Assembly (NCBI GenBank): GCA_021513695.1
Contig: CP084166.1
Coordinates: forward strand, 1,408,001-1,472,000
Length of the DNA: 64,000 nt
From: Candidatus Heimdallarchaeum aukensis
GTDB taxonomy: Archaea > Asgardarchaeota > Heimdallarchaeia > Heimdallarchaeales > Heimdallarchaeaceae
Direction: 5' to 3'
Below are positions 1,399-50,530 of the stretch, one piece after another. The notes under the pieces are model-generated. The model was given only the letters and a program-made list of their open reading frames with translations. It had not been told where the DNA came from and made no database searches. A program made the position numbers and the translations under genes. Within the stretch, counting starts at the first letter, position 1; every line of letters begins with the position of its first letter.

Positions 1399-2250
1399 TT
1401 ACTTTAACAATGCAAAAACAATCCATAATACAGAAATAATTATTGCTGAAAGAATATTAAATAGAGAATACAATTTTAAAGTATCATCAAAGTATAAACT
1501 TTCTATATATTTTCCTATAGAATTTAATCTATTATCTATAGTGTACAATAACGAGCTAATTTTTGTTGTTTCTCTTTCATTTTCTTCCGTTGATGCGAAT
1601 ATATCGATAAAAGCGTGTAACATTTTTTTATCTTGTTCTAATACTAAAGATGAACTAACTGACTCTAATTTTTTATGAAGTTCTTCAATCTGTTCTTTTG
1701 AAAGAACAGGTATTTTCCAAGAATAAGCTTCACTTGCTATTTTTCCAAGATGGTGAGCAATATCATCAATGTATATATCGAATGATACTGGTCGATAATT
1801 TGTTTGATCTATCATTCTAAAAAATTGTAGATCTAAATCCTTTTTATTCTCGTTTTGATAGTATTTTAACGGATCTACTACTAAAGCTATAGCTTTTGGG
1901 AACAAGTTTTGATATGTTCGTTGTGTGTTTTTATCTGTTCCTGATAAGAAACACCCATAACCTGGATGAGTATGCCACCAGCCAACTATGGTTTGTTCAC
2001 TATCTCTCTCTTGTAACTTCATAACAATATCAACTAAAGCTTCATCATCCATTACAACAAAAGTGCTTGTTTGCTGTTGTTTTCCTGTATCAATGTCTGT
2101 AATAATAAGCTGATCAGTATCTTGCTTAACATATCCTATTAGCAAACCAGCTGATTCTTTTGATGTATCCATTCTATCAACAGTTAGTATTTTTGCCAAA
2201 GCAGTTGCAGATAATAAGATTTCAATATCTGAAGGTTCAGTCATTATCAA
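1399..2250 (-). CDS. JAB/MPN (JAMM) metalloprotease-domain protein with a C-terminal transmembrane helix
   Basis: The JAMM motif H-x-H-x7-S-x2-D is present as 'WHTHPGYGCFLSGTD', with an upstream Glu. A hydrophobic C-terminal segment (LFNILSAIIISVLWIVFALL) suggests a membrane anchor. Confidence 0.8.
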   Translation of the reverse strand: MIMTEPSDIEILLSATALAKILTVDRMDTSKESAGLLIGYVKQDTDQLIITDIDTGKQQQTSTFVVMDDEALVDIVMKLQERDSEQTIVGWWHTHPGYGCFLSGTDKNTQRTYQNLFPKAIALVVDPLKYYQNENKKDLDLQFFRMIDQTNYRPVSFDIYIDDIAHHLGKIASEAYSWKIPVLSKEQIEELHKKLESVSSSLVLEQDKKMLHAFIDIFASTEENERETTKISSLLYTIDNRLNSIGKYIESLYFDDTLKLYSLFNILSAIIISVLWIVFALLK

Positions 2251-2321: not shown

Positions 2322-3359
2322 TTATAATCTTGACAGAATTGGATATTCAGTTAATAGGTAATAGGTCATTTCCTTTAACTTTATTATATCTGGATGTTCT
2401 TTTGAAATGCCTTGGTGTTCAGTTTTTTCTATGTAATCCATCATAGCCCATAGAGCTATATAAAAATCAATAGGAAGGCCTTTAGGGTACATTTCCTCTA
2501 AAGTAGGTACATGAAGTTCTTTTAGGTGAACATTATAACCTTTCAAAAACTTTCTAATATCTTTAGCAGTCTCAACTAAATTATTTGTTTCTCTGTACTC
2601 CAGTATGGATTGTCTCCCAAAAAAAGTTCCCATATCCTCAAATCGGTCATATGATCCCTTCATCCAGAATGTTGGGTCAATTAGTGCGATAGTTATTACT
2701 TGATTATCAGGTGTTATTCTTAGCATTAAATTGCTTTGGTGAAAATCCCCAAAAGCATCGCAACCCCCCATTGAAGAACTAATCATTTGCAGAAATGGTT
2801 TAGATTTCTCTACCACCGTGCTTTCTTGTTCATCGCCGCCAAATATCTTAAAAACTAATCTTCGATGAAGCTCTTCATATATATCTACCATAACTTTTCT
2901 TGTTTGTCCTCCATGAATTACTGCAAGAACATAACCAGCCCAAAAACTCTTATTTCTTACTTCAACAGCATCTTCATAATTAATTCCTGTTATCCCTTCA
3001 TAAGCTATAAAGGGATTATCTCCTAGATTTACATAAATAAATCTTGGAATTCTGACTACAGATCTCGCAGCAAATTTTTTCTCAAGGGTCATTGTGTTTT
3101 TTATTTCTAATAATGCATCATTACTATTTTCTATAAATTTAATAGCAACCTTCTTCTTATGTTCAGTGATTTCTGAAGAGTAATATACATCTACAACGAA
3201 CACTTCTCCAAATCTTCCAGCTGTTTTAAAATATTTAATATTGTTAATGTTGATATCAATTATATCTTTTCCAGTATCTCTATTTGCTTCATCAATAAAG
3301 TAGTATCGGAATTGATTGATTAATTTTAGTAAAAGCTCAGAAGCAACATCAGTATTCAT
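2322..3359 (-). CDS. Protein-kinase-like phosphotransferase (APH/ChoK-type fold)
   Basis: Catalytic-loop-like 'FGDFHQSNLML' followed by 'IDPTF' (the Brenner motif and DFG-equivalent of APH/choline-kinase-type enzymes). There is a paralogue at 36771..37856. Confidence 0.55.
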   Translation of the reverse strand: MNTDVASELLLKLINQFRYYFIDEANRDTGKDIIDININNIKYFKTAGRFGEVFVVDVYYSSEITEHKKKVAIKFIENSNDALLEIKNTMTLEKKFAARSVVRIPRFIYVNLGDNPFIAYEGITGINYEDAVEVRNKSFWAGYVLAVIHGGQTRKVMVDIYEELHRRLVFKIFGGDEQESTVVEKSKPFLQMISSSMGGCDAFGDFHQSNLMLRITPDNQVITIALIDPTFWMKGSYDRFEDMGTFFGRQSILEYRETNNLVETAKDIRKFLKGYNVHLKELHVPTLEEMYPKGLPIDFYIALWAMMDYIEKTEHQGISKEHPDIIKLKEMTYYLLTEYPILSRL

Positions 3360-3583: not shown

Positions 3584-4699
3584 ATGACATCTGTACAAAA
3601 AATAAGTTGGAGCAAGGAAGAAATAAAATTAGTTGCCGACTATTTAGTCAAAATAGCTAATCAGTCTGAAGAACGCAAAATGGAAATCCCAATCGAGAGC
3701 GAAACACTAAAACATGAAAAAGTTGTTGAAGAAGCCAAAATGGGTATTGCAGAAGCATTAATTACAAATGAAATTAATGAAGAAGCTTTAGTGGAAGATC
3801 AAAAAATAAAAGAGATAATGGAATTTTCTCAGATTCCACAGCCCAAAACTGTAAAAAGGATAGAAGAAAAAATACCAGAAGAGAAGATAGATGTTATTGA
3901 AGAGAAGAGATTAGAGTTTGAAGAAGATAAAACAGGCATTGGAGAAATGGGAGAAATTGGTTTTGAAGAAATGGGAGAAATTGGTTTTGAAAAAAGAACA
4001 ATAGAAGGAGAAATTGTACAAGAACCGATTGTAGAGGAAAAAGTAGAAGAACCGATTGTAGAGGAAAAAGTAGAAGAACCGATTGTAGAGGAAAAAGTAG
4101 AAACAGATATTTTTTCACTAGCTAAAGAGATAGGCAAAGCATTAACAGAAACAGAAACAACAGAAGACATATCAATTGTTCAGAAAATAGAAACAGAGGA
4201 TTTGTCCGCTGAAGTTGTTACAGAACCAATTTTAGACAAACCCGTTGAAATAAAACCAGAAGACTTTCCAGAGGATATAAGAGATATAGTTCTAGAAGAA
4301 ATACCAGCTAAACCAGAAAAAGTAGAAATAACTCAAGAAGTGAAAGAAGAAATACCAGCTAAACCAGAAAAAGTAGAAATAACTCAAGAAGTGAAAGAAG
4401 AAATACCAGCTAAACCAGAAAAAGTAGAAATAACTCAAGAAGTGAAAGAAGAAATACCAGCTAAACCAGAAGAACTACTCACTGAGGAACAAATTAGAGC
4501 GAAAAAACGAGAAGAAATTATTCAGAAAATGCTTGCAGAGACAAGAAAGAGAGAACAGGAAGCTGGTGTTAAAGTATATAATATGGGAGAAACAGCTGGA
4601 AAGAAATATTCTGCTGTAATTATTGGTCAAGAATCATCAAAAAACATTAAAACTTGGAAAAAGGTAAGTAAGAAGAAAAAGAAGAAAAAGAAGAAATAG
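3584..4699 (+). CDS. Acidic, low-complexity tandem-repeat protein with a C-terminal poly-lysine tail
   Basis: 371 aa, Glu/Lys/Ile-rich. Three in-frame repeat arrays and a terminal K11 run. A GGTGA-like RBS ('gtgagg') lies 7 nt upstream of the ATG. Confidence 0.6.
   Translation: MTSVQKISWSKEEIKLVADYLVKIANQSEERKMEIPIESETLKHEKVVEEAKMGIAEALITNEINEEALVEDQKIKEIMEFSQIPQPKTVKRIEEKIPEEKIDVIEEKRLEFEEDKTGIGEMGEIGFEEMGEIGFEKRTIEGEIVQEPIVEEKVEEPIVEEKVEEPIVEEKVETDIFSLAKEIGKALTETETTEDISIVQKIETEDLSAEVVTEPILDKPVEIKPEDFPEDIRDIVLEEIPAKPEKVEITQEVKEEIPAKPEKVEITQEVKEEIPAKPEKVEITQEVKEEIPAKPEELLTEEQIRAKKREEIIQKMLAETRKREQEAGVKVYNMGETAGKKYSAVIIGQESSKNIKTWKKVSKKKKKKKKK
3944..3991. repeat. 2 x 24 bp direct in-frame repeat (GEMGEIGFE units)
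   Basis: Exact duplication of 'gaaatgggagaaattggttttgaa', seen in the sequence. Confidence 0.8.
4022..4102. repeat. 3 x 27 bp perfect in-frame tandem repeat (EPIVEEKVE units)
   Basis: 'gaaccgattgtagaggaaaaagtagaa' repeated three times exactly. Confidence 0.85.
4295..4471. repeat. 3.5 x 51 bp perfect in-frame tandem repeat (EEIPAKPEKVEITQEVK units)
   Basis: 'gaagaaataccagctaaaccagaaaaagtagaaataactcaagaagtgaaa' repeated exactly. Identity at nucleotide level implies recent expansion. Confidence 0.85.
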
Positions 4700-4791: not shown

Positions 4792-5868
4792 GTGAATAAA
4801 ATGGAGGATATATCTGGTGTTAATTGGGATAAATTTGTAGGTTTTTGTATTTTCACATTTGAGGAGGAATTAATTTTTGACAAAGTTATAAACACTAAGA
4901 CTTCATTTTCTACGGTCTATCATATTATCGATACTTCTAACAAAATGAGAGACGAACTTAAAAAATCAAAAAAAATATCTGTTGTTAATGATATTTTTAG
5001 AGTTGATTACGAAATTATTTTCAATGTTATTTTTGCTTTCATGTTTAAGCCTGAAACATCAGATGAATTTTCTAATTTATCAATAAAAACAATTAAACAA
5101 ATAATAATTGAGCACTTAAAAGATTACGGGGCAATAGATAAAATGGAACCCGCATCCCAATGTGCGCTAATAAAACGGCTAGGAAATCTTATTGCAGAAC
5201 GCGCTTGTAATCAAATAAAAAACGAATATTTTTCAAAAAGAGCTAAACTTCAAGAAAAAACAGAAACTCAAGCAGTAGTAACTCAACCGCCGGAGGTTGA
5301 ACCAGTAGTCAAAGAGACAGAGGAAATAAGAAGAGAAGAAGAAATAAAGAAAGAAAAAAAACCTAAAGAAACACAAGTTCAAACTTTAGGAAAAGTTGAA
5401 AATCTTTTAGAATTCATAGGAGTAAAAGGAGAAGTAATTTCTGAAGAAGCTGCAAGTGAGGGGACAAAATCTGAACTAACAGAAAAGTTATTGGAAGAAA
5501 CAAAAAGAGATTCAATAAAAAGAGTTCTTTCTTCTGTAATAAAAGGACTAGATGAAAAAACAGGTGTATGTTTTGTTTATACAGAACAGCTTGGACAACT
5601 AGACATTTTATCTTACGGAATGTCAGAAAAACATGCTAATTTTGTTTTAGGTATTTTAAGCAAATATCCAGAAATAATTAAACAAACTCTGTCATCAGCT
5701 AATGAGGAAAAAACTCTAGATGCAGGAGACGGTGTTGTCATCTTAGAAGAAACAGAGAAGGGGATCTTGGTAAGTATCACTAAATACAAAGAAGAGATAC
5801 CAACAATTGTCCAACGTTTAAAAATGGTTAAAATGCTAATAGATCAATTCTTAAAAACATCATTTTAA
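4792..5868 (+). CDS. Hypothetical protein; paralogue 1 of 3 sharing a C-terminal roadblock/LC7-like domain
   Basis: C-terminal ~110 aa (…LDAGDGVVILEETEKGILVSITKYKEE…) aligns with the C-termini of the 5895..6482 and 6560..7579 products. It has the alternating beta-strand pattern of Robl/LC7 (MglB-like) domains. The acidic middle region is low-complexity. Confidence 0.55.
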   Translation: MNKMEDISGVNWDKFVGFCIFTFEEELIFDKVINTKTSFSTVYHIIDTSNKMRDELKKSKKISVVNDIFRVDYEIIFNVIFAFMFKPETSDEFSNLSIKTIKQIIIEHLKDYGAIDKMEPASQCALIKRLGNLIAERACNQIKNEYFSKRAKLQEKTETQAVVTQPPEVEPVVKETEEIRREEEIKKEKKPKETQVQTLGKVENLLEFIGVKGEVISEEAASEGTKSELTEKLLEETKRDSIKRVLSSVIKGLDEKTGVCFVYTEQLGQLDILSYGMSEKHANFVLGILSKYPEIIKQTLSSANEEKTLDAGDGVVILEETEKGILVSITKYKEEIPTIVQRLKMVKMLIDQFLKTSF

Positions 5869-5894
5869 GAATCTAAAATAAAAAAGAAAAATTG

Positions 5895-6482
5895 CTAATT
5901 GTTTTCTAGTAGAATTGAATTGTTCAAAACTACTTGTTGTACATGCTTCAAACGACGGGCTAGTTCATCAACAGAAGATTTATCTTGAACAATGCCTACA
6001 AGATAATTATCTTTCTCGCAGTTTTCAAGGACAACATAACCAATTCCAGTATCCAATACTTTCACTTCTTCAGTAGAACCTAACAGGTCGTTTATTACAG
6101 GAGGATATTTTCTAAAAATGTTAAGTATCTTTTTTACAACTTCTCTATTCAATGGTCCTCGAACAATTGCTGTTTTTTCTTTACTTTCTATGTGTGGAAC
6201 CAGAGCTGCAGCAGAAAGAGATTTTAGATCATTTGCTATACTGTCAAGTAATGCATCAATTGTTACTTTTATTGCTTTTCTCACTTCTTCTGGTGAAGAT
6301 GTTTGAGACAAGAATTTTTTCAAATATTCTCCTGATTCAATTTTCTTTTTTGAAACTTTAATAGTATTATATGCTATTTCTTCTAACTCTACAAAACTAG
6401 ATTTTTCCGCAGCTTTTCTTTTTCTAGTGGAAATTTTTCCAGCTTGAGATGATTGTTTTTTCGACGGAGACATGCATATCAA
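5895..6482 (-). CDS. Hypothetical protein; paralogue 2 (short form) with a roadblock/LC7-like domain
   Basis: 195 aa. Contains 'VKVLDTGIGYVVLENCEKDNYLVGIVQDKSS', which resembles the roadblock core '[27 protein letters not shown]'. Confidence 0.55.
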   Translation of the reverse strand: MICMSPSKKQSSQAGKISTRKRKAAEKSSFVELEEIAYNTIKVSKKKIESGEYLKKFLSQTSSPEEVRKAIKVTIDALLDSIANDLKSLSAAALVPHIESKEKTAIVRGPLNREVVKKILNIFRKYPPVINDLLGSTEEVKVLDTGIGYVVLENCEKDNYLVGIVQDKSSVDELARRLKHVQQVVLNNSILLENN

Positions 6483-6559
6483 AGAAATAATAACTTCAAA
6501 CTAAAAAAATCTTTTCCTTTATTTAGTAGGTAAATTTATTAGCATTTGTTGATTAATGT

Positions 6560-7579
6560 ATGAATAGGTTTGGGGTAATGAATAGTTTAGACTTTAAAGA
6601 CATTATAAATCCACTAGTCGCTGTACTTACTTACAATGCAGAAATTGGAAAATGTGAAATAAAAGTAGAGAACGTAAGAACAAACAGAGAATTGGAGGAA
6701 ATTGAGAAAAATTTTAATAGATTATCTTACGATTTTTTAGAATGGGTAAAACGATATAATGAAATTACTATCTTTAAAGGCTCTTTTAGAGCAACATACA
6801 TTAAATTTTACAACATGCTACTTCTCTTTGTTTCAAGGTTGGAAAATTCTGGATTTGAAATAAGACCTGTTATCAAAAAGTTCTTGGAAGAGTTTGCACG
6901 TAAGTTAGTCGATGATTATATCTCAAAAAACCTTTCAAGCTCAAGAATCAAATCTTTTTTAGAGATAGAAAAATTAGATAAAGAGATTCTAAAGTCTGAA
7001 ATTGTTAAGACTTTCACTAGAATGAAAATGGATCCTTCTGCTTTACTAGAAAAATTAAGTAAAGAAAAGAAGGAAGAAGGAGTTCAAGAAATTTATATAC
7101 AAGACCAGAAAAAAAGAAGAAAAGAGATTCTCTCAGAATATCAAAAAAGCGAACAATTTGAACTTGTACCAAGTGTAAACAACATACATATGACTGCAGA
7201 AATTATTGAATCTGCAAATAAAAAAGCAATAATTTCTTTATTATTTACAGTTATAAAAGGATGTAAATCACCATCTGCAGCAGCTTATATCTATCCAATG
7301 GAGGGAAGAACTATTGGAGAACTTTATGCGGGTGATTTAGAAGAACATAAAATTTTATACGTTCTTGAGGCGATTTCTGAACATCCAAAAGCAATAAATG
7401 AAATGCTTCAGTCAAAAGAAGATCTAAAAATGCTTGATGCAGGGATAGTACAAATAATTTTAGAAGATCTAACAGAAGGTAAAATCCTAATTGGAATAAC
7501 AACAAATAAGGATGATGTTTTCAATGTTGGATACAAGATTAAGATTGCTAAATTCATCATCAAGCAATTTGGATTCTAA
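6560..7579 (+). CDS. Hypothetical protein; paralogue 3 with a C-terminal roadblock/LC7-like domain
   Basis: 339 aa. C-terminal 'LKMLDAGIVQIILEDLTEGKILIGITTNKDD' is homologous to the other two paralogues. Confidence 0.55.
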   Translation: MNRFGVMNSLDFKDIINPLVAVLTYNAEIGKCEIKVENVRTNRELEEIEKNFNRLSYDFLEWVKRYNEITIFKGSFRATYIKFYNMLLLFVSRLENSGFEIRPVIKKFLEEFARKLVDDYISKNLSSSRIKSFLEIEKLDKEILKSEIVKTFTRMKMDPSALLEKLSKEKKEEGVQEIYIQDQKKRRKEILSEYQKSEQFELVPSVNNIHMTAEIIESANKKAIISLLFTVIKGCKSPSAAAYIYPMEGRTIGELYAGDLEEHKILYVLEAISEHPKAINEMLQSKEDLKMLDAGIVQIILEDLTEGKILIGITTNKDDVFNVGYKIKIAKFIIKQFGF

Positions 7580-7641: not shown

Positions 7642-8676
7642 ATGAAAGAAGGTAAACTACCAATTCCAAAACTTAACGAGATACTAGCGCTAAAAGGAGC
7701 AAAAAATGATGGCATAATCTCTGCGGGAATAATTGGTCATGATGTGGCAGTAATTGATATTCAGTCAGCAAAGCAAAATGCATTGAAGTTTTATGACAGT
7801 AAATCAGAGGTTTTGTTAGTAGAAAAATCAGATCCCATCACTTTTCCTACTCCAAACCCAGGATACTATTCTGTTATAGTAAATTCTAATGACATTGCTT
7901 GCTCAGGGGGAGTACCTTATGGTTTTTTGATCACAATTATTGCTCCTCCAGATACAACTTTTGATAAAATCAAAGCAATTCAAAAAGAAATCCACAGACA
8001 GTGTGAAAAATTTGATATTAGTATCCTTGGCGGACATACTGAAATATCGCAATCTGTAAACACAATAATTATTTCTGGACATATGATAGGCTTTGTCCCA
8101 AAAGAATTCCTTGTTCCAAATTACTTGTCACCTGGCGATAAGATTATTGCATTAGGTTATTCGGGTAAAGAAGGAACAAATATTTTGATTGAAGAAGCAG
8201 GAGAAGCAATATATGATAAATTTACGAAAAAAGAGATATATGAATGGAAAGAAAGAAATTCAGATATAAGTATTCTTAATATTGCCCTCGAGCTAAATAA
8301 AGAATTTAAGCCAAAACTGCTACATGACCCTACAGAAGGAGGAATTTTTGGCGCATTGTATGAAATTGTTGCTCTAACAAAATTAGGTATTATGTTAGAT
8401 AGACTTCCTCCTCTTTCAGATGTTACAAAAAAACTCTCTGAATGGCTGAATTTTAATCCGTATCGATTAATTTCTTCTGGAGGATTAATTATTGCAGCAG
8501 AAGAGGAAAAAGCATTAAAGATTGTAGAGTTCTTAAAAATGAAAAAATATCCTGTAGAAATGATAGGAACAGTAATAACAAGTGACAAAAAATTAATTTA
8601 CAAAGAAAAAGAAATTCACCCTCCCGAGGGTGATGATATTATTATAGCTCTCAATATTCTTAATAAAAGAAAGTGA
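7642..8676 (+). CDS. PurM-like (AIR-synthase-related) family protein, HypE/ThiL-like
   Basis: N-terminal 'GHDVAVI' and 'LGGHTEI' motifs, and a C-terminal domain typical of the PurM superfamily. The exact subfamily is undetermined. Confidence 0.55.
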   Translation: MKEGKLPIPKLNEILALKGAKNDGIISAGIIGHDVAVIDIQSAKQNALKFYDSKSEVLLVEKSDPITFPTPNPGYYSVIVNSNDIACSGGVPYGFLITIIAPPDTTFDKIKAIQKEIHRQCEKFDISILGGHTEISQSVNTIIISGHMIGFVPKEFLVPNYLSPGDKIIALGYSGKEGTNILIEEAGEAIYDKFTKKEIYEWKERNSDISILNIALELNKEFKPKLLHDPTEGGIFGALYEIVALTKLGIMLDRLPPLSDVTKKLSEWLNFNPYRLISSGGLIIAAEEEKALKIVEFLKMKKYPVEMIGTVITSDKKLIYKEKEIHPPEGDDIIIALNILNKRK

Positions 8677-8682
8677 TACAGA

Positions 8683-9357
8683 ATGGAGCAAAAAACAAGC
8701 TATAACTATGATTTTTGGGGAGCTGAAGCTGAATTAACAAAAATTAAATGGTTTGGTTTAGAAGCTATAAAAAAGGTGAGAATTTCCAAGAAATATAGAA
8801 TTTCTGAAATTGATGAAATGTTAAGAAAAAAAAGAACAATCACTGAGGCAAAGCTTCTAATTACTGCAAAAAAAGCTAAAGTCCAGACCCCATTCGTATA
8901 TGATGTTGATTCTAAAAAACGAACAATAATTATGGAATTTATTGATGGAACTAAAGTCAAAGATTTTCTGAAATCAGAAGAATTTGATAGTAAAGTCAAA
9001 AGGAAATTAATGGAAGAGATAGGAAAAAAAGTAGGTTTACTTCACGCTAATCATCTGATACATGGAGATTTAACTACTAGCAACATACTTCTCAGAAATA
9101 AAAAGTTAGTATTCATTGATTTTGGTCTCGGAAAGTTCTCAAATGAAATTGAGGATAAGGCAGTTGATGTTCTACTTATGAAAAAATGTCTAACTAGTAC
9201 TCACGCAGAGGATAACAAGGAATACTTCATTTCTTTTCAAAAAGGATATGTATCTAGTTACACCAAAGGTGATGAAATATTAAAACGTGCATTAAAAGTA
9301 GAAGCAAGAGGAAGACATCTAAAAGAAGAGGATGTAATTTCAGAGTATATTTTCTAA
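8683..9357 (+). CDS. bud32: KEOPS complex kinase Bud32 (Kae1-associated kinase)
   Basis: Small RIO-like kinase. Catalytic loop 'HGDLTTSNILL' and 'IDFGLG'. Size of 224 aa is typical of archaeal Bud32. Confidence 0.8.
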   Translation: MEQKTSYNYDFWGAEAELTKIKWFGLEAIKKVRISKKYRISEIDEMLRKKRTITEAKLLITAKKAKVQTPFVYDVDSKKRTIIMEFIDGTKVKDFLKSEEFDSKVKRKLMEEIGKKVGLLHANHLIHGDLTTSNILLRNKKLVFIDFGLGKFSNEIEDKAVDVLLMKKCLTSTHAEDNKEYFISFQKGYVSSYTKGDEILKRALKVEARGRHLKEEDVISEYIF

Positions 9358-9362
9358 ATCTA

Positions 9363-10670
9363 CTAACCCCTTTTTCTGATAATTGACAATGAATTTATTT
9401 TTTGTATAATTTTCCATGTTTCTTCTGCATACTTCTCCTGATGTGTCCAATTACCCTCTATTACTCCTTGCTTTGATAATTTTCCTAATTCTTTTCTTAT
9501 TTTTTTGGAAGTCTTACCAACTGGAGCATTAGCTAATTTTGAACCTGGTAAAGGCATAAAAACATGTGCTCTTATTTTTGATCCAATTTTACTAAGGGAT
9601 TTTATTACTTCAATTGATTGGAATTCATCTGCTTCAGTTGCATCTGGTAAACCAAAGATGAAGTCTACAATTGGGATAAAACCAGCATCACGGATATATT
9701 TTATTGCTCTTAAGCCTTCTTCTACTGAATGCCCTCTATGGTACATTCGTAAAATTTTATCACTTCCTGATTGTAATCCAATAGCTATTTTTTTATTTGA
9801 AACTATTTTCTTCAACTTAGTCATAATGCTTTGAGTAACAGTTTCTGGTCTAACTTCTCCAGGAAAAGTTCCAAAAAAGACTCTTTTTATTCCATCAGTA
9901 TTCTTTATTTTTGTTAGTAAATCTATTATTTCCTCTTCATTTGTCTCTTTTGGTTTCTGTGATAAGTATCCAAAGGAATTTGGAGTGATAAACCTTATAT
10001 CATCTAATTTATGTTTTGCCATCCATTGAACTGTCTCCAATATAACATCTGGTGACCTGTGGCGAGTTTTCTTGTTAAATATACTTGGAACTTGACAGAA
10101 TGCACAACCAAAAGAGCAACCTCTTGTAATTTCTAGTGGGGGAAACAACTTTCTTTGTCTTGATATCATAGGGTAATCGTCTAATTTTATTTGTGGAGGA
10201 GAAGGGTTAACAATTAGCTTTTCTTTATCTTCTGCTAGATAAGCTATGCCAGGTGTTGTTTCCAACTTGTCATTATTTAACCATTTTTCCAAAAAAAGAG
10301 AGAATGATAATTCTCCTTCTCCGATAAAAGCATAATCAAATCCAAGCCTTAAAGTGCTCAAGGGATCTCCAGTAGGATGACTTCCTCCAGCAACAAATAT
10401 AATTTTATTCAGATCTTGAGTTTTTAAATTAGAATACAGATCATCCATACTAGAATATATTTTTTCTAGTTGTGCTGTTCTAAAAGAGAAAGCAAATATC
10501 ACTTTATCATATCTTTCTAAATAAGATTGAATCTTCTTGCTGTCAACATCCGATTCAAGTAAAATGTCAAACCCATCTAGTTTTTCATTTTGATCGATTG
10601 AGGCAACTAATGGGGTAATGCTATAGAAATTCTTTTTTTCAAGACTGAAAATAAGAGCTGAATTATTCAA
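9363..10670 (-). CDS. Radical SAM protein with an N-terminal B12-binding-like domain
   Basis: 'RGCSFGCAFCQ' CxxxCxxC cluster motif. Upstream 'FVAGGSHPTGDP' resembles a cobalamin-binding domain. Overlaps the Kae1 stop by 4 nt, which suggests an operon. Confidence 0.8.
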   Translation of the reverse strand: MNNSALIFSLEKKNFYSITPLVASIDQNEKLDGFDILLESDVDSKKIQSYLERYDKVIFAFSFRTAQLEKIYSSMDDLYSNLKTQDLNKIIFVAGGSHPTGDPLSTLRLGFDYAFIGEGELSFSLFLEKWLNNDKLETTPGIAYLAEDKEKLIVNPSPPQIKLDDYPMISRQRKLFPPLEITRGCSFGCAFCQVPSIFNKKTRHRSPDVILETVQWMAKHKLDDIRFITPNSFGYLSQKPKETNEEEIIDLLTKIKNTDGIKRVFFGTFPGEVRPETVTQSIMTKLKKIVSNKKIAIGLQSGSDKILRMYHRGHSVEEGLRAIKYIRDAGFIPIVDFIFGLPDATEADEFQSIEVIKSLSKIGSKIRAHVFMPLPGSKLANAPVGKTSKKIRKELGKLSKQGVIEGNWTHQEKYAEETWKIIQKINSLSIIRKRG

Positions 10671-11671
10671 TTTTCATTTCTCCAGTTAACGACTACATCT
10701 TCAACCCTATAATGTTGGTCAATAATTGTTTCTTTTAGAGGAGTAGAATATCCTTGGTTGTACATTATGAGTCCTAACCATGCTATCATTAATCCATTAT
10801 CAATCGCTAAACTCGGTTCTAATCCAAAGAATCTAGCACCATGTGATTCTGCCATAACTTTAAGCATTGCTTTCAATCGATTGTTTGAAGCAACGCCACC
10901 ACATACTAATACTTCATTCTTTTTAGTATGTGCTAAAGCTCTTTCAGTAACTTCAACTAGCATTGCAAAAACCGTTTCTTGCAAACTGTAAGAGAGATCC
11001 TCAAGAGTATATTCCTTTTTTTTGAGTAGCTTAGAAATGTGTGTGAGAATTCCAGAAAAAGACACATCCATTCCTTTTATAACATAAGGGATTGGAATAT
11101 ATTTTGTTCCATTTTCTGCTAATAGCTCGATTACACGACCCATTGGAGCTTTTTTATCGCTTAAACCCGCGTTTCTTCCAAAAACATCCAAACAATTTCC
11201 AACAGGAATATCAATAGTTTCTCCAAAAACGCGATATCTGCCTTCGCTAAAAGCAATTATTTGTGTGTTACCTCCTGATACATACAACACTACAGGATCA
11301 TCCATGTTTCCAACTAGTCGTCCTATCTCCACGTGAGCTATAGGATGATTTACGCCAACTAACGGTTTTTTGTATTTTAGCGCTAGTGTCCTTGCAGCAA
11401 CTGCACCAACCCTAAGGCAGGGACCCAACCCTGGACCCTTTGTAAAAGAGATAATATCTATATTGTCCATAGTAAGTTTAGATGTTTTAAGCGCTTCACT
11501 GATTACTTCTGGAATATTTTTGGCATGGAATTCAGAAGCTTCACGAGGGTGAATACCAGAACCTAAGGGGGGTTTGTAGGTTCTTCTAACATTTGCAAGT
11601 ATATTTCCGTTATTATCTATTATTCCTACACCTAATTTGTCAGCAGAACTTTCAATGCCAAGAGATAACAT
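10667..11671 (-). CDS. kae1: tRNA N6-adenosine threonylcarbamoyltransferase Kae1/TsaD
   Basis: N-terminal 'LGIESSADKLGVGII', His-containing metal-binding motifs, 334 aa. A canonical Kae1/TsaD family signature. Confidence 0.9.
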   Translation of the reverse strand: MLSLGIESSADKLGVGIIDNNGNILANVRRTYKPPLGSGIHPREASEFHAKNIPEVISEALKTSKLTMDNIDIISFTKGPGLGPCLRVGAVAARTLALKYKKPLVGVNHPIAHVEIGRLVGNMDDPVVLYVSGGNTQIIAFSEGRYRVFGETIDIPVGNCLDVFGRNAGLSDKKAPMGRVIELLAENGTKYIPIPYVIKGMDVSFSGILTHISKLLKKKEYTLEDLSYSLQETVFAMLVEVTERALAHTKKNEVLVCGGVASNNRLKAMLKVMAESHGARFFGLEPSLAIDNGLMIAWLGLIMYNQGYSTPLKETIIDQHYRVEDVVVNWRNEN

Positions 11672-11759: not shown

Positions 11760-12731
11760 TTGAATTTAATGAATAGATTCTTTTTGATCATTTACCCCTG
11801 GGACTCTATTGATAGGAAAAATGAGAAAAAGAAAAATTTGATTGGTACATTCCTCATGATGTCTTTTTCAGGAATATATTCATTAATACTCTTAAGTATA
11901 TTTTTGAAAAAGATTTTACCTATCATTTCTAAGTCCGAAAATGAACTTCTTGGTAAAAACAGCATAACAGTCAGATTCCTAAATTCTATTTTTTCCAATG
12001 GTTGGCTATTTGCAATTATTTTTGTTATCATAGTAGTTTTATATAGCATAACTTACTTTTTTAATCTCAAAATTGATCAAAATACTATCAAATTTCTTTT
12101 TACAAGAATAAAAGCTATTAAGGATTATTATAATTCTCTATTTCGTGTGTTCCTTATTATTTGTAAAGAGTTAATCGAGGTTATTTTTATTGCTTTATTA
12201 GAGTTTATTATTGCTGAAATAATAACCCTAGGATTAGTGTCAATTATCTCGACAATTTCAATCTCTTTAGCTCTTAATTCAAGTTTATCCATTTACGGTT
12301 TAGCTTTAGCCACAGGAATCTTTATTCATGTCCTAGCTTATCCTATTATGAATGCCTTGTATTTTCTTATTATTATAAAAGAGAAAAAAGAGAAAAAAGT
12401 TTTTAGACATTTAGACCACGAAAAAATAGATTTTGAACTAGAAAAATGGAGAGAGCACACATGGGGTAAGAAAGGTTATTCATATGATTGGAGAGAAGAA
12501 GAATATGCTCCCTTCATCTGTCCAAATTGTAATTCTGTTATTTCAAGTAATTTAGTTATTTGTCCAATTTGTGGAGAAAATGTAGTTGAATTGTTAGAAA
12601 AATTGATGGAAGATGAAGGTAATGAAAAACAAACAGAAAATGACCAAATTAGAACAGAAAGCAATGAAGATGAAAGGAAGATAAATGAAGAAAAGCCAGA
12701 AAATAATGAGAAGAAAACAGAAATTGATTGA
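11760..12731 (+). CDS. Polytopic membrane protein with a C-terminal zinc ribbon and an acidic tail
   Basis: Multiple hydrophobic helices. 'CPNCNSV...CPICG' zinc ribbon near the C-terminus, followed by a Glu/Lys-rich tail. Confidence 0.5.
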   Translation: MNLMNRFFLIIYPWDSIDRKNEKKKNLIGTFLMMSFSGIYSLILLSIFLKKILPIISKSENELLGKNSITVRFLNSIFSNGWLFAIIFVIIVVLYSITYFFNLKIDQNTIKFLFTRIKAIKDYYNSLFRVFLIICKELIEVIFIALLEFIIAEIITLGLVSIISTISISLALNSSLSIYGLALATGIFIHVLAYPIMNALYFLIIIKEKKEKKVFRHLDHEKIDFELEKWREHTWGKKGYSYDWREEEYAPFICPNCNSVISSNLVICPICGENVVELLEKLMEDEGNEKQTENDQIRTESNEDERKINEEKPENNEKKTEID

Positions 12732-12772: not shown

Positions 12773-14017
12773 TTATATTGTTGTTGGAAACTTTGCATAA
12801 GACCTAAACTCTATCCAATCTTCTAAATGTCTATTGATTATATTTTCAATTTCATCCTGGTCTAGTTTTCTTGCAACTGATTCATCTGATGTTAATAGTG
12901 CCATAATATATCTTTCATTTTTGAACTCTAAATCTCGTAATATAAAAATCTCATTTGTTTTTTCTTCGTCGTCTAAAACATATCTTCTTATTCTTAAGAA
13001 AGGTTCTCTCATATTTGCTATCGTTTCTATTGCTTCATAGTATGCATTATGAGATAATTCTTCTAGCTTTTCATTTTTTGAGTACTGGGCAAAACAGATG
13101 TTACTTCTGAAATCATATAAACCAAAAAATTCTGCATTTAAAGTTTCAGCTACTTGTTTTGATGCATTTGCGATATAATCTTGAATCAAACTTATGTTTC
13201 TAAATATGTGCGAGAATGCACCCAATATAGAAGAGCGTATATGAACACTTGTTCTAAAGATTCCTCTTGCAGGATCAAAGGTGGGGACATTAGAATGTAA
13301 ATATTGGACCATTGAGCCAAAGATGGAATTAGCTTTCTCACTTAAAACAAAATCAGGATCAGATTTATGAAAGAATATGGTCCATGGAACATCTAATTTA
13401 AGTTTTTGAGTGACATTAACAATCTGTTTTAAATATTCAAAGCTTTCTTCATATCTATCTTCAGCTTGAACATCTACTACATAGATAATTGTGTCTGTTC
13501 CAATAAAGTACTGTTCAGGATTGTTTAGATAGTCATCTCTATATATTTTCTGTCCTCCTAATTCATGTAGATGAATATCAAGACCAAAAACCTCTAATTT
13601 TCCACGTAAAAGTCCTCTTGTTGGCGTTAGTGCATTCAACTTTTGAAAAAGTAATGAAAAAGCTCCTCTATGTTTCAAGGCTATAGAAAGTGAGGTTTTT
13701 CCTACATTATCAATTCCTGCTAAAATAATTTTAGCTCCAGAGGTTATTTTTTCAGTTTTTTCTACCAATAAAAGTTTGCTTGCAGCTATCCAACTATCTA
13801 TACGCTCTTTTGGAAAAAGTTTTGACAGATCACTATAGTGCTTATTCCACTCTTTTGCTAATTTTTCAATTGTTACCAAACCAAATTTTTCTAGTGATTT
13901 CACCTCACTTTCTCTAATATCTAAGAGAGCTATTACTGGCAAATCAGCTAAATTATCTTCTTTCCTATAATCCTCTTTCAATAGCTTTTCTTTTATATCT
14001 AACACTTTTTTCACCAA
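12773..14017 (-). CDS. Rag/Gtr-like small GTPase with an N-terminal extension and a C-terminal roadblock-type domain
   Basis: G1 is 'AGIDNVGKTS' and the switch II region is 'ELGGQ'. G4 is 'HKSD', the HKxD variant characteristic of RagA/Gtr1 rather than NKxD. The C-terminal ~150 aa contain 'FLRIRRYVLDDEEKTNEIFIL', which resembles the roadblock 'LTFLRIRSKKNEIMV'. Confidence 0.6.
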   Translation of the reverse strand: MVKKVLDIKEKLLKEDYRKEDNLADLPVIALLDIRESEVKSLEKFGLVTIEKLAKEWNKHYSDLSKLFPKERIDSWIAASKLLLVEKTEKITSGAKIILAGIDNVGKTSLSIALKHRGAFSLLFQKLNALTPTRGLLRGKLEVFGLDIHLHELGGQKIYRDDYLNNPEQYFIGTDTIIYVVDVQAEDRYEESFEYLKQIVNVTQKLKLDVPWTIFFHKSDPDFVLSEKANSIFGSMVQYLHSNVPTFDPARGIFRTSVHIRSSILGAFSHIFRNISLIQDYIANASKQVAETLNAEFFGLYDFRSNICFAQYSKNEKLEELSHNAYYEAIETIANMREPFLRIRRYVLDDEEKTNEIFILRDLEFKNERYIMALLTSDESVARKLDQDEIENIINRHLEDWIEFRSYAKFPTTI

Positions 14018-14193: not shown

Positions 14194-16203
14194 ATGTTTT
14201 TTACGGATAAACAGCAACGAATGGAGAAAAGAAAATTGCGTGCACGTAGATTAAACAAAATACTGTTGATTACATTATTATTAATTACCACTTTTTCGGT
14301 AAGCGTATTAGGAAGAGCATATTTTTCTTCAGTTAGTGATTTTGGAAAGACAGACCTAAGTTATTCGAAAAATAATATCGTAGCTTTTGACACCAATGAA
14401 CCCATAATTGACGGGGATTTGGAATCTTATGAAGGAGAATGGGCTAATGCTACAGTTTATAGTAATATAATAGATGGGATAAATTATACTATTACCTTAA
14501 AAGCCAATGAGACTCATCTTTTCTTTGGTATAAGTTATGAGACTAATTTGTTTGTCTCACTCACAGAAACTAACGCAAGCATTCCTCACACTTGGTATGC
14601 AATTGTCTTTGACAGTAACTTTGACAAAGAATTTGGAACAGAACTTGTTCCTGAAGATACTATTTTGTTTAACTATCAAGAAAAAGATGCAACTGACGCT
14701 ACTTTGAATGGTACAGAAACTAATTCATTGGCTTTGGATGAAGATTTAGGAGGAGAAGATAACACAATAGGTGCTATTCAAACAGATCTTTTTGTTGAAG
14801 AATACACTGTAACAATAGAAATCGCTAAAGAATTAAACTCAGGAGATAAGGAAGGGAATGATATAGCCCTAAACCCAAGCGATGCTATTCTATTTGCTTT
14901 AATTCCATTTGCTAACCATACGGATGTATTCAATAATACCGAGGTTCCTTCATTAGAATGGAATACTTTAAGATTAGAACCCACACAAGAATTCTACACA
15001 TATATAGAAAATACCGAAGATCTGTCAGTAGTAACCTACGTTTCAGATTCAGTAAGAACAAAGAGAGTAGAGTTTAATTCAATAGGAAATATGTTAGAAG
15101 CCTATCAATTAAATTCTCAATTAGCAAATAAGGATAATTTTGAGATTACAACTGAAAATCTCAACGATGTTGATCTATTTATTATGGCAGGAAATCAAAA
15201 ATCCCTAACTTCTAGCCAAATATCTGTTTTACGTTCATATTTGACAAATGGAGGAAGTATACTCCTTATTGCAGATGAAGTGAAAAATGAAAGTTCAATT
15301 AATGAATTCTTACGAATGTTCAATATGGAACTATACAATTCAACACTCTACTCAAACAATACTGCCATCAATGAATCTCTAACTTTTGATCAAACAACAC
15401 TTGCACAACTACAATATTTACAAGAAGATAGTGCTTTTACAGAAACAGAATTCAGTAATATCTTTTACACAGGTACAGCAATAAAAAACATTTCTGCCTA
15501 TGGAGAAACCATTTTATTTGGACAAGATGCTGACTTATATCCGATCCTTTCAAAAGAAGGAGAATTCTTCATCAATTTAGGTGAAAAAACAGGATACAAT
15601 AGCACAGAAGATATTGCGATAAACAATGTGACTTTGCAAACTGCTTTAGAACTAAAATATGGAGGAAAAATGATTGTTTCTGCCTCAGCTGACATGTATA
15701 ATTCATCAAATCTTGTATTTGGTTCAAATAAGATGTTACTGTTGAAAGAGATACAATGGTTACTTAACTTCAGATTCAGAATAAGCTATGAAAACTTTAA
15801 CGTCCCTCAGACAAAAGTTAAAGAGGGAAATCCAATAGAAATGAACATTAGCGTTACAGGAGATAACGATACAGTTCTAGCAAATGTTAAAGTACAAGGA
15901 AGAGTGCTTGTTCTTAAATCAGTTGTTTCTTCTGTTGAACTTAATGCTTCAGAAAACAAAATCGATTTCTATGGACAAATTGTTCCTGAAACTAAAGCTT
16001 CATGGGTTGACATTGAGATACTGATGCACAAAAGAGGATATGGATATAACTACACTGAACTAGTAGAAGTTTTAATTGAAAAACAAATAGAAATTCCTAT
16101 AGCGGTAGATTACGTGTCTTTAATTGTTTTTATAGCTTCCATTGGATTAGCTATAATAGGAATGATAACTATAAGAAGACACAAAATTCAAAAAGAAGAA
16201 TAA
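14194..16203 (+). CDS. Large secreted or surface protein with an N-terminal signal anchor and a C-terminal transmembrane anchor
   Basis: 669 aa. N-terminal hydrophobic segment. Many N-x-S/T sequons. C-terminal helix 'VSLIVFIASIGLAIIGMITI' followed by a basic stop-transfer. The internal segment 'LFIMAGNQKSLTSSQISVLRSYLTNGGSILLIADE' is GldG/ABC-auxiliary-like. Confidence 0.5.
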   Translation: MFFTDKQQRMEKRKLRARRLNKILLITLLLITTFSVSVLGRAYFSSVSDFGKTDLSYSKNNIVAFDTNEPIIDGDLESYEGEWANATVYSNIIDGINYTITLKANETHLFFGISYETNLFVSLTETNASIPHTWYAIVFDSNFDKEFGTELVPEDTILFNYQEKDATDATLNGTETNSLALDEDLGGEDNTIGAIQTDLFVEEYTVTIEIAKELNSGDKEGNDIALNPSDAILFALIPFANHTDVFNNTEVPSLEWNTLRLEPTQEFYTYIENTEDLSVVTYVSDSVRTKRVEFNSIGNMLEAYQLNSQLANKDNFEITTENLNDVDLFIMAGNQKSLTSSQISVLRSYLTNGGSILLIADEVKNESSINEFLRMFNMELYNSTLYSNNTAINESLTFDQTTLAQLQYLQEDSAFTETEFSNIFYTGTAIKNISAYGETILFGQDADLYPILSKEGEFFINLGEKTGYNSTEDIAINNVTLQTALELKYGGKMIVSASADMYNSSNLVFGSNKMLLLKEIQWLLNFRFRISYENFNVPQTKVKEGNPIEMNISVTGDNDTVLANVKVQGRVLVLKSVVSSVELNASENKIDFYGQIVPETKASWVDIEILMHKRGYGYNYTELVEVLIEKQIEIPIAVDYVSLIVFIASIGLAIIGMITIRRHKIQKEE

Positions 16204-31383: not shown

Positions 31384-31704
31384 TCACGCTAAAGCGTGGG
31401 AGGTTCTTGATTCTACAGAGAGAAGCAAAGGGCGTGCCACCGCCCCGTTAATGACTCCCGCAGGGAAACGTTCACCCTGAGCGAGACCTATATTTAAACA
31501 ACCTACAGCGTCTCTATGGGGCTCTAAGCCACAATCAAGACATTTGAATAATCTTTTTCTTTTGAATACGTGCGTAGAACGACAACGGGGGCAAATAGAG
31601 GAACTGTGTGCTTCTATAACTTCTTTTACGCTTATACCGTATTCTTCTGCCTTTGCTTTGATTCTCGTAACGAGATAATTATGACTCCAAAAATTGTGTA
31701 CCAT
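31384..31704 (-). pseudogene. tnpB: IS200/IS605-family tnpB (OrfB) remnant; only the RuvC-III and zinc-finger C-terminus remains
   Basis: 106 aa fragment. 'EEYGISVKEVIEAHSSSICPRCRS...FKCLDCGLEPHRDAVGCLNI' matches the TnpB C-terminal 'YTSQxCxxCG...CxxCG..xDRDxNAAxNI' region. The ~300 aa N-terminal part is absent. Confidence 0.7.
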
Positions 31705-37889: not shown

Positions 37890-38290
37890 AAAAGCTTTAT
37901 GTGTTTACTATGGGGTAGTGTCTAGTTTTTATACCACCTCCTAGGCAAAAAGGAATTAAGGGGTGGGTGTCCAAGGCTCTGGTGGGGGCGAATGAAGTTA
38001 TAATAAAGCATAAAGAGAGTAAGAAAACCAGAGAGATGATCGGAGCCATAAATAGCTCGAATAGAACAGGTACAGTGGAGAACAGAGTGAAACCAACGAT
38101 AGGTCTTAAGACTGGCATTAAAGCGCTCAACATATGACCGTATACCACCACTAACAACAAGATGATTAAGCCCGAGACGAGATAGATAGGATAGAATAGC
38201 AGGAACCAGCATCAGTGACGACGATACGTGGTTTTGAGGCCCAACAGCGGAACCAATAACGAAAAGTTAGTAAGCACTCGAGGACACTAC
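37890..38290. mobile_element. Degenerate insertion-sequence fragment (3' part of a DDE/rve-type transposase gene)
   Basis: A higher-GC patch encoding a transposase C-terminus in two overlapping frames. It abuts the 5'-truncated surface-protein gene. Confidence 0.5.
37922..38212 (-). pseudogene. DDE (integrase-core, IS481/IS3-like) transposase C-terminal remnant
   Basis: 'VERFNASLKTY...YNFIRPHQSLGHPP' matches the 'ERFNrtLK ... YNxxRPHxxLg' C-terminal signature of rve-type DDE transposases. The catalytic N-terminal portion is missing. Confidence 0.6.
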
Positions 38291-50062: not shown

Positions 50063-50530
50063 ATGCATGTTGGATTTATCATCCGAGAATTAACCGAGGA
50101 AGAGATTAACCATAAGTGCTTATATGTTTTTGAAAAAGACAGAATACTTTTTCCTAATACAGGAGTTTTATTTTTTGTTGAATCCTATGAAGAGACATAT
50201 GGAGTAAGAATAGATCAAGATGGATTTCTTAGAGGATTAGAAACATGGTTTACAAAATATCCTCATAATCCTGGCGATACGATAATCATCGCAAAAACTT
50301 CTGAAAGTTTTTCTTTAAGTAGTTCTTCTGAGCTCATTCAACAAATTATTGGAGAATCATATGAAAAAGTTCGTGTTGATGAAATGGATGAGAAATCAGA
50401 AGCATGTCCAAATTGTCAATATCAACTAGAAATGGCAGCTAAAAAAGAAGAACGAATCATTTTCAAGTGTGCACGTTGTGGATTTACAATGGTTAGAAAA
50501 ATAAAAGATAATGAAAATGAAGAAGATTAA
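50063..50530 (+). CDS. Hypothetical protein with a C-terminal zinc ribbon; tandem paralogue 2
   Basis: 155 aa. Same architecture ('PGDTIIIAKTSESFSL' and 'CPNC...CARCG'). Confidence 0.45.
   Translation: MHVGFIIRELTEEEINHKCLYVFEKDRILFPNTGVLFFVESYEETYGVRIDQDGFLRGLETWFTKYPHNPGDTIIIAKTSESFSLSSSSELIQQIIGESYEKVRVDEMDEKSEACPNCQYQLEMAAKKEERIIFKCARCGFTMVRKIKDNENEED

Follow-up and report, generated by a model that had tools for sequence, protein, structure and literature searches.

Identification of three neighbouring paralogues

To which protein family do three adjacent, unannotated-looking genes of a Heimdallarchaeial genome belong, and what may their products do together? The genes lie at positions 4792 to 7579 of a stretch of 64,000 nucleotides of contig CP084166.1 from Candidatus Heimdallarchaeum aukensis, called here "the window". 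They are designated A (4792..5868, + strand), B (5895..6482, − strand) and C (6560..7579, + strand), and all three are present in the list of open reading frames (ORFs) as the initial annotation had placed them. With moderate confidence, we read A, B and C as paralogues of a sequence-orphan family within the longin/roadblock superfamily, whose products would assemble into a heteromeric platform for small GTPases. The window has a G+C content of ~30%. At 89–99% identity, the proteins that it encodes match those of metagenome-assembled genomes (MAGs) of Candidatus Heimdallarchaeaceae and those of Ca. Heimdallarchaeum endolithica, whose genome is complete (CP084167.1).

Judged by the lengths and the alignments of its orthologues, each true gene is probably shorter than its ORF. 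Gene A, a 358-aa ORF opening with GTG at 4792, has a probable ATG at 4801 (355 aa); B, a 195-aa ORF opening with TTG, has one at 6473 (192 aa); and C, a 339-aa ORF, has one at 6578 (333 aa). A and B are convergent with 26 bp between them, while B and C are divergent and separated by ~100 bp.

A homologous C-terminal domain of ~110 aa had been claimed for the three products, and it was confirmed by BLASTP and by hhalign, with an extent of ~110-130 aa. BLASTP aligned A and C at 32% identity over 111 aa (E 9e-12), A and B at 40% over 67 aa (E 3e-11) and B and C at 31% over 109 aa (E 1e-13), and domain-only family profiles compared with hhalign gave E-values of 4e-15, 7e-13 and 2e-13 for A/C, A/B and B/C, respectively. 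The LDAG/LDTG motif noticed earlier is equally real; in full it is K-x-L-D-A/T-G, preceded by a helix with a Pro kink ("KYP"), and it takes the form KTLDAG in A (5710-5727), KVLDTG in B (6045-6062, − strand) and KMLDAG in C (7427-7444). The residues most conserved in all three families are found on helix α2, which carries the KYP kink, and in the K-x-L-D-A/T-G motif at the α2-to-β3 junction. The homologous C-domains in three neighbouring genes bear out the local expansion of paralogues that the initial annotation had suggested. A match of B to DUF2714 (E 7e-4, below the cutoff) was judged to be noise.

A predicted roadblock fold at the C-terminus

The fold was read from two AlphaFold2 models, those of A and C, and from two structure-comparison methods. 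The model of A has a mean pLDDT of 80.7 with both domains above 90, and that of C a mean of 77.7 with the domains mostly at 80–95. According to the published definitions (PMC8833172), a canonical longin domain follows the order β-β-α-β-β-β-α-α and a roadblock domain the order α-β-β-α-β-β-β-α; the latter is the predicted order of the shared domain in both proteins. In A this domain spans residues 223-354 (5458..5853, + strand), with the elements H223-250, E258-264, E270-275, H279-301, E308-310, E315-320, E324-330 and H333-354, and in C it spans residues 208-337 (7181..7570, + strand), with H208-232, E239-246, E252-258, H262-283, E291-293, E298-303, E309-314 and H317-337. The corresponding domain of B (5898-6296, − strand) is taken to be roadblock-type by its homology to A (E 7e-13) and C (E 2e-13).

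For this domain as modelled in A and C, the nearest solved structures are LAMTOR2/p14, MglB and MglC, Roadblock/LC7 proteins from Asgard archaea and Streptomyces, and the C-terminal domains of Rag GTPases. The best Foldseek match of A was LAMTOR2 (E 8e-4, probability 1.0, TM-score on the target ~0.6), followed by MglB, MK-D1 Roadblock3, the Thor roadblock protein, MglC and Rag C-terminal domains; Mon1 and Inturned were also among the top structural matches. The initial annotation had called the domain roadblock/LC7-like and had named an unrelated fold as the outcome that would speak against it. Structure prediction returned a roadblock fold, so that the label holds for the predicted fold and fails for the Pfam family, PF03259 being unmatched by the isolated domains at E≤10. 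We therefore regard the roadblock fold as well supported by modelled structure, and not by sequence membership in Robl_LC7.

Predicted longin-type domains of A and C

The N-terminal halves of the three proteins had been described as acidic low-complexity, short and helical, respectively, and this holds only in part. Both A and C are predicted to carry a folded longin-type domain there, at residues 15–159 of A (4834..5268, + strand) and 21–154 of C (6620..7021, + strand), each with the canonical longin order of elements. The acidic stretch of A is confined to the linker between its two domains, and B is indeed without a longin domain.

The elements of the A and C N-domains line up in register, both with MAFFT and when the full-length proteins are aligned by hhalign. 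An invariant F-R-x-x-Y motif is common to both (FRVDY in A, 4996-5010; FRATY in C, 6785-6799), and its arginine (R70 in A, R77 in C) is in both cases part of a longin-domain hairpin. When compared alone by hhalign, the two N-domains gave a non-significant E-value of 0.12; their homology is thus suggested by the common predicted fold together with the in-register alignment. Profile comparison of the N-domain with the C-domain of the same protein gave no signal of internal duplication.

The linker of A (residues 160–222; 5269..5457, + strand) is acidic (net charge -5), predicted to be disordered and variable in length, and its pLDDT is below 50 except for a helix at 204-208. Within it a short helix is conserved, with the motif KVENLLEFIG (5392-5421), where V202, L205 and G210 are invariant and L206 and I209 nearly so across 57 orthologues (VExLLEFIG). 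Motifs aligned to it are present in B and C, and the linker is predicted, at a pLDDT below 50, without a βX strand or docking. B retains the roadblock domain and the helix that precedes it, and it has gained a basic N-terminal tail (6393-6473, − strand) with a net charge of ~+7 in 28 residues, after which come conserved helices and then the roadblock-type domain. The simplest history would be the duplication of a longin–roadblock gene into A and C, with a truncated copy giving rise to B.

Distribution and conservation of the gene cluster

Word-indexed searches retrieved 66 orthologues of A (identity 50-99%), about 70 of B (~193 aa, identity 59-99%) and 22 of C (identity 41-97%, including Ca. 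Heimdallarchaeum endolithica). All those with a named source come from Heimdallarchaeaceae/Heimdallarchaeota, are annotated as "hypothetical" and are without a precomputed Pfam domain. An exhaustive HMMER search of 1.84 billion representatives with the combined profile found 12 proteins at E≤1e-3, all of them A/B/C family members or fragments except P0177. Beyond the orthologues of A, B and C, no other relative was detectable; P0177 is an acidic two-domain protein of 334 aa from another Heimdallarchaeota MAG (L007, 1527..2531) whose C-domain is homologous (hhalign E 5e-10). It is a single gene with no paralogue nearby; an archaeosine-TGT-like gene and one for a radical SAM protein are next to it, and its context is unrelated to that of A-B-C. 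With purifying selection evident from about 160 orthologues, the family is real and very narrow, being restricted to Heimdallarchaeaceae/Heimdallarchaeota.

A, B and C are neighbours in the window and in six additional loci, which come from five additional sources and whose orthologues are as little as 41–56% identical. The cluster is present in every related locus examined, so that the lack of conservation which the initial annotation had named as speaking against its reading is not seen.

A putative heteromeric platform and its alternatives

Wherever such systems have been characterised, longin and roadblock domains form dimers by way of strand β3 and a single "top" helix, and the same face meets the small GTPase (PMC3747258). 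The residues conserved across the A, B and C families concentrate on these α2/β3 elements of dimerisation and GTPase binding (PMC3747258), and for this reason we favour a heteromeric GTPase platform. By analogy with MglB, Ragulator, TRAPP, Mon1-Ccz1 and the Rag C-terminal domains, the domains of A, B and C would pair edge-to-edge through β3 and the top helix. A and C may form a pseudo-symmetric heterodimer, longin with longin and roadblock with roadblock, which B could cap unless it homodimerises. Such a platform would bind a small GTPase of the Arf/Rag family and control its nucleotide state or its location, and the basic tail of B, possibly with the polybasic tail of the acidic protein encoded at 3584..4699, would be a candidate tether to an acidic surface, e.g. 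the membrane.

Several observations weigh against this reading. At the sequence level, hmmscan against Pfam-A found no Robl_LC7 match for the full proteins at E≤1, nor for the isolated C-domains at E≤10, a search of NCBIfam found no match for A, B or C, and sequence-profile searches of the PDB with the B-family and combined profiles returned nothing relevant. Together, these searches (Pfam, NCBIfam and PDB profiles) gave no tie of the family to the longin families. Moreover, the AlphaFold2 runs on A and C used mixed A/B/C-family alignments, which could bias their N-domains, whose sequence homology is insignificant, to a common fold. The pairing of the three proteins is itself an analogy with the characterised systems. 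A, B and C do not form a common operon, as A and B converge and B and C diverge, and their clustering is non-specific evidence for a complex, since the whole 15-kb block, including the KEOPS genes, is syntenic. Across the loci examined, no GTPase gene is consistently found next to A-B-C. It was reported that Asgard GTPases and roadblock/longin genes seldom share operons, so that gene order is uninformative on their complexes (PMC10933270).

Which GTPase, if any, might then be served? The initial annotation had pointed to a Rag-like GTPase encoded ~5 kb away, and such a gene does exist at 12773..14017 (− strand), matching Gtr1_RagA (PF04670) at E 7e-20 with 71.9 bits against a cutoff of 22, and Arf at E 8e-15. 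It carries the motifs GIDNVGKT, ELGGQ, in which Glu replaces the Asp of G3, and HKSD (residue 217), behind an N-terminal extension of ~90 aa. The HKxD form of the G4 motif is typical of Rag GTPases, and LAMTOR2/3 dock on the C-terminal roadblock domains of the Rags. A Ragulator-like scaffold specific to this neighbour, with the roadblock domains docking on its C-terminal domain, would thus suit the truly Rag-like nature of the GTPase, the top rank of LAMTOR2 among the Foldseek matches of A and the distance of 5.2 kb, which is the same in H. endolithica. Yet the adjacency is limited to one genus: the GTPase and its divergent neighbour, which codes for a membrane protein of 669 aa containing an IFT52_GIFT/ABC_transp_aux domain (14194..16203, + strand), adjoin the A-B-C block only in the window and in L002, L003 and L009, all of the genus Heimdallarchaeum, and they are located where synteny breaks. 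Four more distant genomes (L001 and L004 to L006) keep A-B-C intact with neither a Rag-like GTPase nor a GIFT gene in the ±10 kb fetched (for L001, only ~3.6 kb upstream); other genes take their place there. Two genes of L004, of 415 aa and 297 aa, were considered as relocated Rag orthologues and shown by BLASTP to be non-orthologous. In a scan of species-representative genomes a close orthologue of the GTPase was found only in H. endolithica, and relatives of 34–40% identity in Hod-, Hermod- and Promethearchaeota have no A/B/C-like domain in their flanks. Furthermore, five genes on mixed strands lie in between, and the C-terminal region of the GTPase has no profile similarity to the shared domain. 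Given the genus-limited adjacency, the relatives lacking an A/B/C domain nearby and the dissimilar C-terminal region, the pairing with this GTPase is without specific support, and we consider a dedicated Ragulator-like scaffold unlikely.

The proteins might instead have nothing to do with GTPases, acting as a GAF/profilin-like sensor or adaptor, or as an accessory of the syntenic tRNA-modification genes (Bud32, Kae1, B12-radical SAM, AIRS-family), and this we find doubtful. C, the AIRS-family gene and Bud32 run in the same direction, 62 bp and 6 bp apart, respectively; Kae1, Bud32 and the radical SAM gene are conserved beside A-B-C in all loci, and non-GTPase roles are indeed on record for dynein LC7 and SNARE longins (PMC10933270). 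However, the 50 top Foldseek matches included roadblock, longin and Mon1 structures and no GAF domain, and ~130 aa with five strands in the order α-β-β-α-β-β-β-α describe a roadblock domain; roadblock targets were covered fully, against 116 of 151 residues for GAF. The KEOPS subunits Pcc1, Gon7 and Cgi121 were unmatched in every search, and the distant homologue P0177 stands in an unrelated context. Another variant would make A and C a longin-type GTPase-activating protein (GAP) of the FLCN-FNIP, NPRL2-NPRL3 or C9orf72-SMCR8 kind, with the invariant arginine of F-R-x-x-Y as arginine finger. That arginine does sit in a longin-domain hairpin in both families, and GAP-like motifs are on record for longins of Heimdallarchaeia; in the longin GAPs (FLCN, NPRL2, SMCR8) and in the Asgard FLCN/SMCR8-type proteins, a GP motif at the start of β2 lies beside the Arg finger (PMC12290439). 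In A and C, by contrast, the arginine is at the β3-β4 turn, no DENN or other C-terminal module is present, and the family consensus before β2 lacks the GP motif both in A (TFEEE|LIFDKV) and in C (AEIG|KCEIKVE). For comparison, Arg78 of NPRL2 presumably lies in the β4-β5 loop. As the motif accompanying the finger is absent, a GAP of this type is highly improbable.

Perhaps A and C form a "di-longin" heterodimer that has survived in archaea and shares its ancestry with the eukaryotic tri-longin Rab guanine nucleotide exchange factors (GEFs), namely Mon1-Ccz1, BLOC-3 and CPLANE, with B supplying a third, roadblock/lamtor-like module in trans, A + C + 2B forming a hexa-longin scaffold and the acidic/polybasic neighbour acting as a LAMTOR1-like wrapping or tethering subunit. 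We rate this scheme as quite improbable. If true, it would be the first prokaryotic model for the origin of multi-longin GEF and scaffold complexes.

Genomic surroundings of the cluster

The conserved block reads JAB/MPN, a 348-aa protein, the acidic protein, A, a small gene coding for a transmembrane (TM)/Zn-ribbon protein in some loci, B (− strand) and C, followed by an AIRS-family enzyme, Bud32, a B12-radical SAM enzyme (− strand), Kae1 (− strand) and a membrane protein. The unusual repeat protein that the initial annotation had placed next to the trio is there (3584..4699, + strand), ending 101 bp upstream of the ATG of A. Its gene contains three perfect or near-perfect tandem repeat arrays, of 24 bp x2.4 (3939-3995), 27 bp x3.2 (4016-4102) and 51 bp x3.5 (4294-4471). 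The body of the protein has a net charge of -47, and its last 25 aa, a poly-Lys tail, one of +12. It is a conserved neighbour, syntenic upstream of A in all relatives and encoded at the same position in L001, L002, L004 and L006, where its N-terminus, two middle blocks and C-terminal block are conserved, the last with the consensus "QMLAETKKRE..GET.G..YSAV..G.ES.KN.K.WKK" plus a K/R tail; only the acidic repeats vary. Possibly, it is a fourth component of the A/B/C set. An antisense ORF within the repeat gene (3829..4170) is a repeat artefact.

Upstream, a JAB/MPN metalloprotease-like gene (1399..2250, − strand) with a hydrophobic C-terminal segment adjoins a gene for a 345-aa protein (2322..3359, − strand) with a weak APH/kinase-like match only; in every related locus the two are kept together as a pair ahead of the cluster. 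The gene between A and B, coding for 174-218 aa, is found in the more distant relatives (L001, 2320..2844; L004, 11124..11780; L005, 11169..11750; L006, 11097..11744), but neither the window nor H. endolithica has it. It was rejected as a fourth paralogue, the L001 copy, the only one translated, being a TM protein with a zinc ribbon at its C-terminus. A 323-aa protein of the window (11760..12731) has a TM plus zinc-ribbon make-up resembling that product.

Downstream of C, the AIRS-family protein (7642..8676), whose matches to HypE, ThiL and methanogenesis marker 2 are far below the NCBIfam cutoffs, precedes the Bud32-like kinase of KEOPS (8683..9357). The B12-binding radical SAM enzyme (9363..10670, − strand) lies between Bud32 and the second KEOPS gene, Kae1/TsaD (10667..11671, − strand). 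The KEOPS genes are dispersed in the block, and in H. endolithica Cgi121 is found ~5 kb upstream (L002, 2701..3237). Among the neighbours and small ORFs scanned near the trio there was no canonical roadblock or longin gene and no further GTPase gene. Elsewhere in the window, two short ORFs (31384..31704, − strand; 50063..50530, + strand) match the Cas12f1-like/TnpB TNB domain at E 1e-16 and 1e-3, and a third (37922..38212, − strand) matches an integrase core fragment (rve_3, E 7e-5); probably, these are what is left of IS200/IS605-type and other mobile elements.

Comparison with known longin and roadblock systems

In bacteria as well as in eukaryotes, the roadblock fold serves to build platforms for small GTPases. 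Longin/roadblock platforms are the common core of the eukaryotic GTPase regulators that give organelles their identity, namely Ragulator, TRAPP, Mon1-Ccz1 and the GATOR1/FLCN/C9orf72 GAPs. In structural alignments, identity to MglB, MglC, LAMTOR2/LAMTOR3, MK-D1 Roadblock1-3, the Thor roadblock protein and Streptomyces CvnB is 8-17%. The MglB- and LAMTOR-type roadblocks, which have a C-terminal helix, stand alone, whereas the roadblock-type domain of A and C follows a longin-type domain in the same polypeptide; mglA and mglB are adjacent, whereas A, B and C have no adjoining gene for a partner GTPase; and, unlike the MglB/LAMTOR-type Roadblock/LC7 proteins, the trio is confined to a single archaeal family.

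Asgard genomes contain dozens of roadblock/longin genes, some fused to GTPases (PMC10933270), and 40 AsCOGs carry roadblock domains (bioRxiv 10.1101/2024.07.03.601958). A, B and C share superfamily and phylum with the longin/roadblock-GTPase fusions and FLCN/SMCR8-type longins described in Asgard archaea (Tran et al. 2024, PMC10933270; Traffic 2025, PMC12290439), and they add examples to the known expansion of longin and roadblock modules in this phylum. Unlike those sets, they have no GTPase domain and no GP motif, are unmatched by the defining Pfam models and form a conserved cluster of three paralogous genes. In the literature we found neither a conserved cluster in which a stand-alone pair of longin–roadblock paralogues is joined by a third, roadblock-only protein, nor an account of Asgard relatives of the tri-longin GEFs.

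With these GEFs a suggestive likeness exists, since LD1–LD2 of Mon1/Ccz1 (LD, longin domain) follow the same longin-to-roadblock order as A and C, and Mon1 and Inturned are among the predicted structural matches. Nonetheless, the tri-longin Rab-GEFs (Mon1, Ccz1; Fuzzy/Inturned; HPS1/HPS4) have a third, lamtor-type domain, whereas A and C end right after the roadblock-type domain. An αX-βX connector between LD1 and LD2 steadies their arrangement, while the linker of A has a short conserved helix with no βX predicted. Global superposition is poor (TM-score ~0.2), only single domains superpose, and there is no sequence similarity. Unless a Mon1/Ccz1-like architecture proves to be homologous, the narrow distribution makes the family informative on lineage-specific elaboration more than on the ancestor of eukaryotes. 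The locus is a compact conserved set, made of two longin–roadblock proteins, a roadblock-only protein and a disordered neighbour, that sequence annotation had missed, and it is well suited to asking whether multi-subunit platforms of longin and roadblock domains already existed in Heimdallarchaeia.

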